From Escherichia coli (GTDB lineage Bacteria > Pseudomonadota > Gammaproteobacteria > Enterobacterales > Enterobacteriaceae), in NCBI RefSeq assembly GCF_003334405.1, contig NZ_QOWM01000061.1: a stretch of 604 nt of DNA; one strand, given 5' to 3'. The position numbers and the translations under genes are program-made. The notes beneath the pieces are model-generated. The model did no database searches. It saw only the letters and a program-made list of their open reading frames with translations, and was not told the origin of the DNA. Shown here piece after piece: positions 78-429 of the stretch. The stretch's first letter is position 1. Each line of letters opens with the position of its first letter.

Positions 78-125
78 ATACGGGTGTTACCTGAAAGATT
101 TTTACTCGGGGCCAATCTTTAAGAT

Positions 126-378: not shown

Positions 379-429
379 GATACTGCGCTGGATACTACAA
401 ACTACTTCCACCGAACCCACCGTCATTAG

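Follow-up and report, generated by a model that had tools for sequence, protein, structure and literature searches.

Short direct repeats in the tRNA-Val leader of the Escherichia coli lysT operon: probably inherited parts of a native lysW–valZ spacer

Directly 5′ of a tRNA-Val gene of Escherichia coli, between two tRNA genes and on the same (minus) strand as both, lies a stretch of 51 nt (positions 379–429) that contains short direct repeats and does not resemble the 48-nt leader of a neighboring tRNA-Lys gene. The original prediction was that the two leaders may give tRNA-Val and tRNA-Lys different contexts for processing by RNase P or RNase E, with the repeats short enough to be due to chance. 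What then is this stretch, where do its repeats come from, and do the two leaders differ in a way that may matter for processing?

The window, that is the whole stretch of 604 nt that was analyzed, is 100% identical to E. coli K-12 MG1655 and runs antisense to the K-12 operon; the minus strand is accordingly the sense strand for everything described below. Four tRNA genes were identified on it by ARAGORN and Rfam, three for tRNA-Lys(UUU) and one for tRNA-Val(UAC). In the K-12 annotation (locus L001, transcript sense), these are the third to sixth genes of a seven-gene tRNA cluster in the cpoB–nadA interval: the window holds lysW, valZ, lysY, and lysZ of the lysT tRNA operon. In transcript sense, lysW, a tRNA-Lys(UUU) upstream of the Val spacer, comes first (528–603; ARAGORN, Rfam tRNA score of 79.2 bits, K-12 annotation). 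It is followed by an RtT-like insert of 98 nt (430–527; the Rfam RF00391 match ends at 430, with 54.9 bits), by the 51-nt lysW-to-valZ spacer (379–429), which is both tRNA-Lys trailer and tRNA-Val leader and is delimited by comparison with the spacer of strain E69, and by valZ, the tRNA-Val(UAC) (303–378; ARAGORN, Rfam, K-12 annotation). The tRNA-Lys(UUU) lysY starts 3 nt past valZ (224–299; ARAGORN, K-12 annotation). Then come a second 98-nt RtT-like insert (126–223; Rfam and self-comparison) with its pseudo-CCA end at 126–142, the 48-nt lysY-to-lysZ spacer that is the tRNA-Lys leader (78–125), and lysZ, again a tRNA-Lys(UUU) (2–77; ARAGORN, K-12 annotation).

Most of the descriptive part of the original prediction stands. 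The leaders have 51 nt (Val) and 48 nt (Lys), the Lys leader is AT-richer (GC 39.6% vs. 49.0% in the Val leader), and the two do not align (local score 8 vs. 10.6 ± 2.0 in shuffles). They are flanked by near-identical units, 126–300 and 430–604, with 97% identity over 175 nt. The A5 run of the Lys leader (T5 on the plus strand) is present, not at 101–105 as first given but at 99–103.

The locus is already known. The lysT operon is well studied, its processing has been mapped, and within it the Val leader is an ordinary spacer; in such a textbook operon of E. coli, the present finding alone carries little weight. According to Agrawal, Mohanty and Kushner (2014; PMC4176162), the seven genes lie in one transcript of >1100 nt, which accumulates at full length in rnpA49 mutants and persists for >30 min when both RNase P and RNase E are missing. 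Separation of the seven tRNAs needs RNase P, which is inferred to cut each 5′ end and to proceed from 3′ to 5′. RNase E acts on the spacers as a back-up, upon inactivation of RNase P only; its cuts are placed upstream of valT and valZ, and the valZ–lysY intermediate vanishes without RNase E. The operon of that study is the very locus considered here (published spacers of 135, 150, 147, and 133 nt vs. 135, 149, 146, and 132 nt in our count). The long spacers are treated there as plain spacers, whereas here they are split into an RtT-like insert and a short ancestral spacer, and the available parts of the paper hold no discussion of the Val leader block, its repeats, or the leader–trailer helix of lysZ.

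How the long spacers are composed appears from relatives. We scanned one genome per species for the Val–Lys junction, with tRNAs mapped by ARAGORN, and obtained at least 120 stretches, an arbitrary sample of phylogenetically related loci. Among the matches listed, the spacers from Lys to Val and from Lys to Lys come in two sizes, either short (14–51 nt) or short plus ∼98–100 nt, and the longer class carries a pseudo-CCA end. Each long spacer of K-12 contains a match to RtT RNA (RF00391) at gathering score that terminates with 17 nt copied from the tRNA-Lys 3′ end; in the insert at 430–527, the last 17 nt (430–446) duplicate that end (tcctgcacgacccacca) and form the pseudo-CCA end. With "i" for a spacer with RtT-like insert, the operon reads Lys-135i-Val-2-Lys-149i-Val-3-Lys-146i-Lys-132i-Lys in K-12 and Lys-26-Val-2-Lys-51-Val-3-Lys-48-Lys-132i-Lys in E69.

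The complete lysW–valZ spacer of E69 is identical in 50 of 51 nt to window 429..379, and that of strain F1 E4 (complete genome) is also 51 nt long. In E. coli E69, SCPM, and F1 E4, the insert at 430–527 is missing and lysW is followed directly by the 51 nt. Similarly, the lysY–lysZ spacer of E69 has 48 nt, without the insert at 126–223, and the 48 nt of the window match the complete spacers of E69, Salmonella arizonae, and Pseudescherichia. With the spacers of E69 and F1 E4 being the 51 nt alone, the K-12 spacer reads as the ancestral spacer plus a 98-nt insert (430–527, and likewise 126–223); 379–429 and 78–125 are exactly the ancestral intergenic spacers. The 51-nt leader with 12-nt flanks occurs at ≥95% identity in 5340 of the 5426 complete E. 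coli genomes. Junction queries with and without the insert returned 2304 and 3878 counts in E. coli, with nearby pieces joined, so that the counts overlap and no frequency derives from them; both states of the spacer, inserted and insert-free, exist within the species.

RtT RNA is known from the tyrT operon, where the repeats end in a copy of the tRNA 3′ end, and the segment 430–527 resembles it in both its gathering score and its copy of the adjacent tRNA 3′ end. The 51 nt at 379–429 are different: they are outside the match and are retained in strains without the insert. Nothing in 379–429 matches RF00391, the matches covering 430–596 and 126–292 and stopping at the pseudo-CCA. We found no useful published account of RtT in the lysT operon.

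Further variation is visible around these spacers. All four long spacers of the K-12 lysT operon consist of a short ancestral spacer and an RtT-like insert of 98–100 nt (the two others at L001 1289–1388 and 2104–2202). Whether a given position has the insert is independent of the others and differs between E. coli strains (E69, SCPM, F1 E4) as well as between genera; two subtypes of insert occur, one beginning with AT..GGTGG and the other with GTTTTAACATC. The lysQ terminator region (atgtaaaaaagcgccctaaaggcgcttttttgcta) is duplicated, at L001 2312–2346 and 2468–2502, on both sides of a full RtT copy downstream of lysQ (the annotated RtT sRNA, 2342–2467); there are therefore two identical terminators ∼155 nt apart. 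The number and order of tRNA genes in lysT-type operons differ among close relatives: E. coli F1 E4 has six tRNA genes in the operon, E. albertii has five with the CTC and CC junctions in reversed order with respect to E. coli, and most genera have a single Val gene in the operon among the matches listed, Citrobacter R56 being among the variant loci. Such variation between close relatives suggests frequent unequal recombination among the repeated units of the operon.

Within the 51 nt, the repeats exist but each lies one position off from the coordinates first reported (gatac at 380–384 and 392–396, ccaccg at 409–414 and 418–423). The hexamer GATACT is found at 379–384 and 391–396 (gatac itself at 379–383 and 391–395), that is, AGUAUC at positions −6 to −1 and −18 to −13 of the transcript. 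CCACCG is found at 408–413, the second CGGUGG of the transcript, and at 417–422, the first CGGUGG. Both came out of the repeat search, with two copies each and periods of 12 nt for GATACT and 9 nt for CCACCG; a third short repeat, ACTAC at 394 and 401, had gone unmentioned. Tandem Repeats Finder with a minimum score of 30 returns no tandem array. At least one repeated 6-mer occurs in 15% of shuffled 51-mers and at least two in 4%, so that, without outside comparison, the repeats are weakly unusual at most. The doubt first voiced about chance is thus justified for the window by itself; it does not extend to GATACT once the paralog and other genera are considered.

The paralogous leader of valT gives the first indication. 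The last 26 nt of the valZ and valT leaders align with a score of 40 vs. 10.7 ± 2.0 in shuffles (0 of 2000 shuffles as high), and the 18 nt next to the tRNA (379–396; AGUAUCCAGCGCAGUAUC, or AGUAUCCAGCGYAGUAUC for the two paralogs) are common to both. In the valT-type leaders, the repeat is longer: an 8-nt motif, GTAGTATC, which includes the tRNA-proximal AGUAUC, occurs twice with the 12-nt period, a situation reached by 0.07%–0.25% of shuffles. The valZ copy has one T-to-C change relative to the valT type. Other genera confirm the conservation. Among the matches listed, 14 of 122 loci, from seven genera, have the 18-mer AGTATCCAGCGYAGTATC without change; it adjoins tRNA-Val in Escherichia (E. 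coli and E. albertii), Citrobacter, Kluyvera, Pluralibacter, Pseudocitrobacter, Superficieibacter, and the Enterobacteriaceae isolate RIT691. Salmonella arizonae, Siccibacter, and Phytobacter have it with one or two changes. The 5′ half of the Val spacer is free to vary in sequence, and the total length ranges from 26 to 51 nt among the matches listed. In Enterobacter, Pseudescherichia, Silvania, Serratia, and Erwinia, the Val leader is unrelated.

Both leaders, Val and Lys, are therefore found conserved in relatives. The two repeats fare differently among orthologs, GATAC being present (and present in the valT paralog) and CCACCG missing in most. With an 18-mer unchanged in seven genera and an 8-nt repeat in valT, the GATACT repeat is inherited rather than a product of chance. 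The alternative would be that the repeats are coincidental and that the conservation reflects short evolutionary distance and hitch-hiking beside a tRNA gene. The hexamers are at best weakly significant in the window (15% and 4% of shuffles), and the block is conserved either wholly or not at all, in step with the tRNA-Val allele, as cassette inheritance also predicts; yet the valT-type 8-nt repeat is rare in shuffles (0.07%–0.25%), and, among the matches listed, the 5′ part of the spacer varies (26–51 nt) while the 18-mer stays fixed in seven genera. We consider this neutral origin very unlikely.

The link with the tRNA-Val allele is as follows. Two tRNA-Val(UAC) alleles, which differ in the D-loop, CTCAGCTGGGAG (CTGGGAG) vs. 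CTCAGTTGGTAG (TTGGTAG), occur in loci L001–L121. Among the matches listed, leaders with ATCCAGC precede the CTCAGCTGGGAG D-loop in 19 of 19 cases; of the 21 other leaders, 17 stand before CTCAGTTGGTAG and one before the near-identical CTTAGTTGGTAG. Leader class and tRNA-Val allele switch together, and thus leader and gene are inherited as a cassette. The leader UCCAGC is also complementary to GCUGGG in the D-loop of tRNA-Val. We rejected a required pairing between the two, since the genes of the valU operon make the same tRNA from unrelated leaders; for the same reason, cassette linkage explains the association better.

The valU operon (valU valX valY lysV) is instructive in this respect. Its Val leaders, like that of valZ, precede the same mature tRNA-Val(UAC) and depend on RNase P. 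They differ in being unrelated in sequence and in ending with …GAAGU instead of …AGUAUC. The same mature tRNA-Val is made there from three unrelated leaders and, therefore, the conserved 18-mer is not needed for maturation of tRNA-Val(UAC). The near-perfect conservation of 18 nt across genera exceeds the known needs of RNase P, and an additional constraint or an undetected role is therefore possible. In the valY leader, GAAGT occurs twice immediately ahead of the tRNA (GAAGTaccGAAGT; L068 9690–9720), so that this leader, like that of valZ, contains a short direct repeat. The Val and Lys leaders of Serratia contain AGCAGT…AGCAGT. Short direct repeats ending at −1 thus recur in unrelated leaders.

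The comparisons above establish the locus, the limits of the spacer, and its pattern of conservation: 379–429 is the native lysW–valZ spacer. We regard it as probable that this spacer is made of a conserved Val leader cassette and a lineage-specific trailer, with repeats that are inherited duplications. The 18–20 nt next to tRNA-Val would constitute a conserved and largely single-stranded 5′ leader, which RNase P would remove by cutting after C(−1), between window positions 379 and 378. The dependence on RNase P is taken from the published work on the operon (PMC4176162). The proximal block travels with one tRNA-Val(UAC) allele and is common to valT, valZ, and their orthologs in several genera. 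The direct repeat AGUAUC/GUAGUAUC would have arisen long ago by a small duplication (period 12 nt) and been retained with the block; the repetition of GATACT, for which we saw no sign of a function, presumably has none of its own. The 5′ half of the spacer would be the lineage-specific trailer of the preceding tRNA-Lys, which in K-12 follows the pseudo 3′ end of the RtT-like insert instead. Finally, the CGGUGG pair, with its 9-nt period, would stem from local doubling of a GGUGG box whose complement, CCACC, is part of that pseudo 3′ end.

Could the GUAUC copies of the Val leader instead serve as cleavage sites for RNase E? RNase E prefers RN↓WUU (the arrow marks the cut), and GU↓AUC fits with a purine at −2, A/U at +1, and U at +2. 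Both GU↓AUC and AG↓UUU motifs are present in the Val leader, and AG↓UUU and AG↓UUG sites occur just upstream in both Val leaders. The lysT study places RNase E-dependent cuts upstream of valT and of valZ (PMC4176162). However, the divergent leaders of Enterobacter and Serratia are without GUAUC, and, in that study, RNase E cuts are seen only with RNase P inactivated, so that selection on them would be weak. A role of the repeats as RNase E sites is, in our judgment, quite unlikely.

The same hexamers could be read as −10-like elements (TAGTAT or CAGTAT) of an internal valZ–lysY promoter, since nAGTAT retains A2, A5, and T6 of the −10 consensus; otherwise, the excised spacer could act as a small-RNA sponge, as other E. 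coli tRNA spacers do, for example, the 3′ETS of leuZ. A scan for sigma-70 promoters (−35 and −10 hexamers 16–18 nt apart) gives 0 sites on either strand of the operon, with a sensitivity limited to the extent that the real promoter of the operon is also missed; by eye, no −35 hexamer matches better than 2/6. The first base of the hexamer can be T, C, or A, depending on the genus. EcoCyc once gave four separate transcripts for the cluster (Agrawal et al., PMC4176162), but the valZ–lysY intermediate depends on RNase E and so is not a primary transcript, which argues against an internal promoter. We rejected the internal promoter on these grounds (no site in the scan, no −35 match by eye, an RNase E-dependent intermediate), and promoter and sponge together are extremely unlikely.

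The second repeat has a different distribution. Among the matches listed, the only leaders with two copies of CGGTGG are those of E. coli valZ (K-12, E69) and of Kluyvera genomosp. 3 (AGGTGGGTTCGGTGG), while valT, E. albertii, and the other genera have no copy; E. coli SCPM has a single one. CGGUGG is complementary to the CCACC of the upstream 3′ end. In the predicted fold, GGUGGGU of the first copy (415–421) pairs with ACCCACC of the pseudo-CCA (431–437), forming 7 bp with a 9-nt loop (probability ∼0.99), and the region of the second copy (406–413) pairs with 386–394, the UCCAGCG of the conserved block, in the minimum-energy structure (probability ∼0.9). Positions −1 to −7 of the leader are predicted unpaired in both the K-12 and E69 contexts (pair probability ∼0.1 or less). 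By sequence, no pairing is possible between U(−2)C(−1) and the ACCA end, and no extension of the acceptor stem is predicted. The proximal Val leader is thus predicted to be accessible next to the RNase P cleavage site. These predictions are thermodynamic only, and the predicted stability of the 68-nt leader context is not above that of shuffles (z = −1.5).

A GGTGG box past a tRNA-Lys end is not peculiar to valZ. Among the matches listed (236 unique 30-nt trailers after CACGACCCACCA, loci L001–L122), GGTGG lies 7–10 nt past Lys-type CCA ends in 23 vs. 3.5 expected, cases that are not independent because most are the 5′ start of one subtype of RtT-like insert. The 8-mer GGTGGAAG is common to the valZ leader and to the 5′ start of the lysT–valT RtT-like insert (p ∼0.03). 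Homology between the 5′ half of the valZ leader and the start of the insert was rejected, with only that 8-mer in common, and we keep it as a weak hint.

One may then ask whether the repeats act as structure, the CGGUGG copies sequestering ACCCACC and UCCAGCG, delaying RNase P at lysW or valZ and so helping the 3′-to-5′ order. According to a review on the specificity of RNase P (PMC10731613), a changed leader sequence shifts the rates no more than a few-fold; effects of orders of magnitude can come from structure in the leader or from its pairing with the 3′ RCCA. In valV–valW, flanking stem–loops enforce a 3′-to-5′ order of RNase P (Chamberlain et al. 2023, PMC10731613). Like lysT, the valV–valW dicistronic precursor is polycistronic, contains Val, and is processed from 3′ to 5′ by RNase P. 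In either precursor, the order could plausibly be set by local structure in leaders or trailers. Together with these precedents, the hairpin probabilities (0.9–0.99), the enrichment of GGTGG 7–10 nt past Lys-type CCA ends, and the directional processing of the lysT operon (PMC4176162) speak for such a role. Against it, the motif is missing in valT, E. albertii, and most genera among the matches listed, E. coli SCPM has one copy only, the local fold is not above shuffles, and most GGTGG matches belong to the start of one insert type. We find this structural role unlikely as an explanation of the repeats. More modestly, and in keeping with the preferred reading of inherited duplications, the CCACCG repeat seems to be a lineage-restricted duplication of the GGUGG box with a 9-nt period, and it may have a minor structural role according to the predicted fold.

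The Lys leader offers a clearer case of pairing. Among the matches listed, conservation of the 48-nt lysZ leader extends further than that of the Val leader and takes in Enterobacter. Its TTCAGG (window 90–95) is complementary to the CCTGAA that directly follows the CCA of lysZ. In K-12, the CCTGAA partner lies past the RtT-like insert (L001 2204–2209), the trailer strand being thus ∼100 nt further downstream. The minimum-energy fold of K-12 keeps a 10-bp interrupted helix between the leader strand AAUCUUUCAGG (window 90–100, minus strand, overlapping the T5 run at 99–103) and the trailer strand CCUGAAUGAUU (L001 2204–2214 in transcript sense, outside the window), in which the final two A residues of the A5 run take part.

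Across Enterobacteriaceae, three complementary versions of the helix occur: TTCAGG/CCTGAA, ATTCAGGC/GCCTGAAT, and TCTTCGAAG/CTTCGAAGA. We assessed the helix by complementarity within each sequence and by a cross-pairing matrix. The mean best helix between lysZ leader and trailer is 7.3 bp vs. 4.3 bp with shuffled trailers (maximum 4.9 in 500 shuffles), and the TTCAGG-type and TTCGAAG-type versions cross-pair by 3–5 bp only. RNAalifold on lysZ leader, tRNA, and trailer does not recover the leader–trailer helix, because two versions of it are 2 nt out of register in the ungapped alignment. A similar helix bracketing the Val–Lys unit was considered and rejected, the mean best being 4.5 bp vs. 4.6 bp in shuffles. 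Among the matches listed, the leader–trailer complementarity of lysZ is thus beyond chance and is held through sequence change, as a covarying helix; the Val–Lys unit has no equivalent. We found no description of the helix in the available parts of the literature on the operon.

The proposal that Val and Lys have different processing contexts can now be divided. Different enzymes are not supported by PMC4176162, where RNase P separates all seven tRNAs; a different leader structure is supported, through the lysZ helix (7.3 vs. 4.3 bp). This structural difference may have an effect on processing. With respect to valV–valW, both the valZ hairpins and the lysZ helix are predictions, and the helix alone has comparative support.

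A broader scheme, speculative and unlikely on present evidence, would be that the short spacers encode a conserved processing program, in which the GGUGG boxes past CCA, the CGGUGG pair of valZ among them, and the lysZ helix delay their tRNAs and so set the 3′-to-5′ order of RNase P, with RtT-like inserts modulating it between strains. If so, elements pairing with tRNA 3′ ends or trailers would hold each tRNA until its downstream neighbor has been cut and trimmed, and the polymorphic 98-nt RtT-like inserts would displace these pairing elements. What the analysis brings to the biology of the lysT operon is, first, a clearer anatomy of its long spacers, an ancestral spacer of 33–51 nt plus a polymorphic RtT-like insert of 98–100 nt and, second, evidence for cassette-like inheritance of the Val leader block together with one tRNA-Val allele. 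The leader–trailer helix of lysZ could, in addition, help explain the 3′-to-5′ order of RNase P on the lysT transcript.
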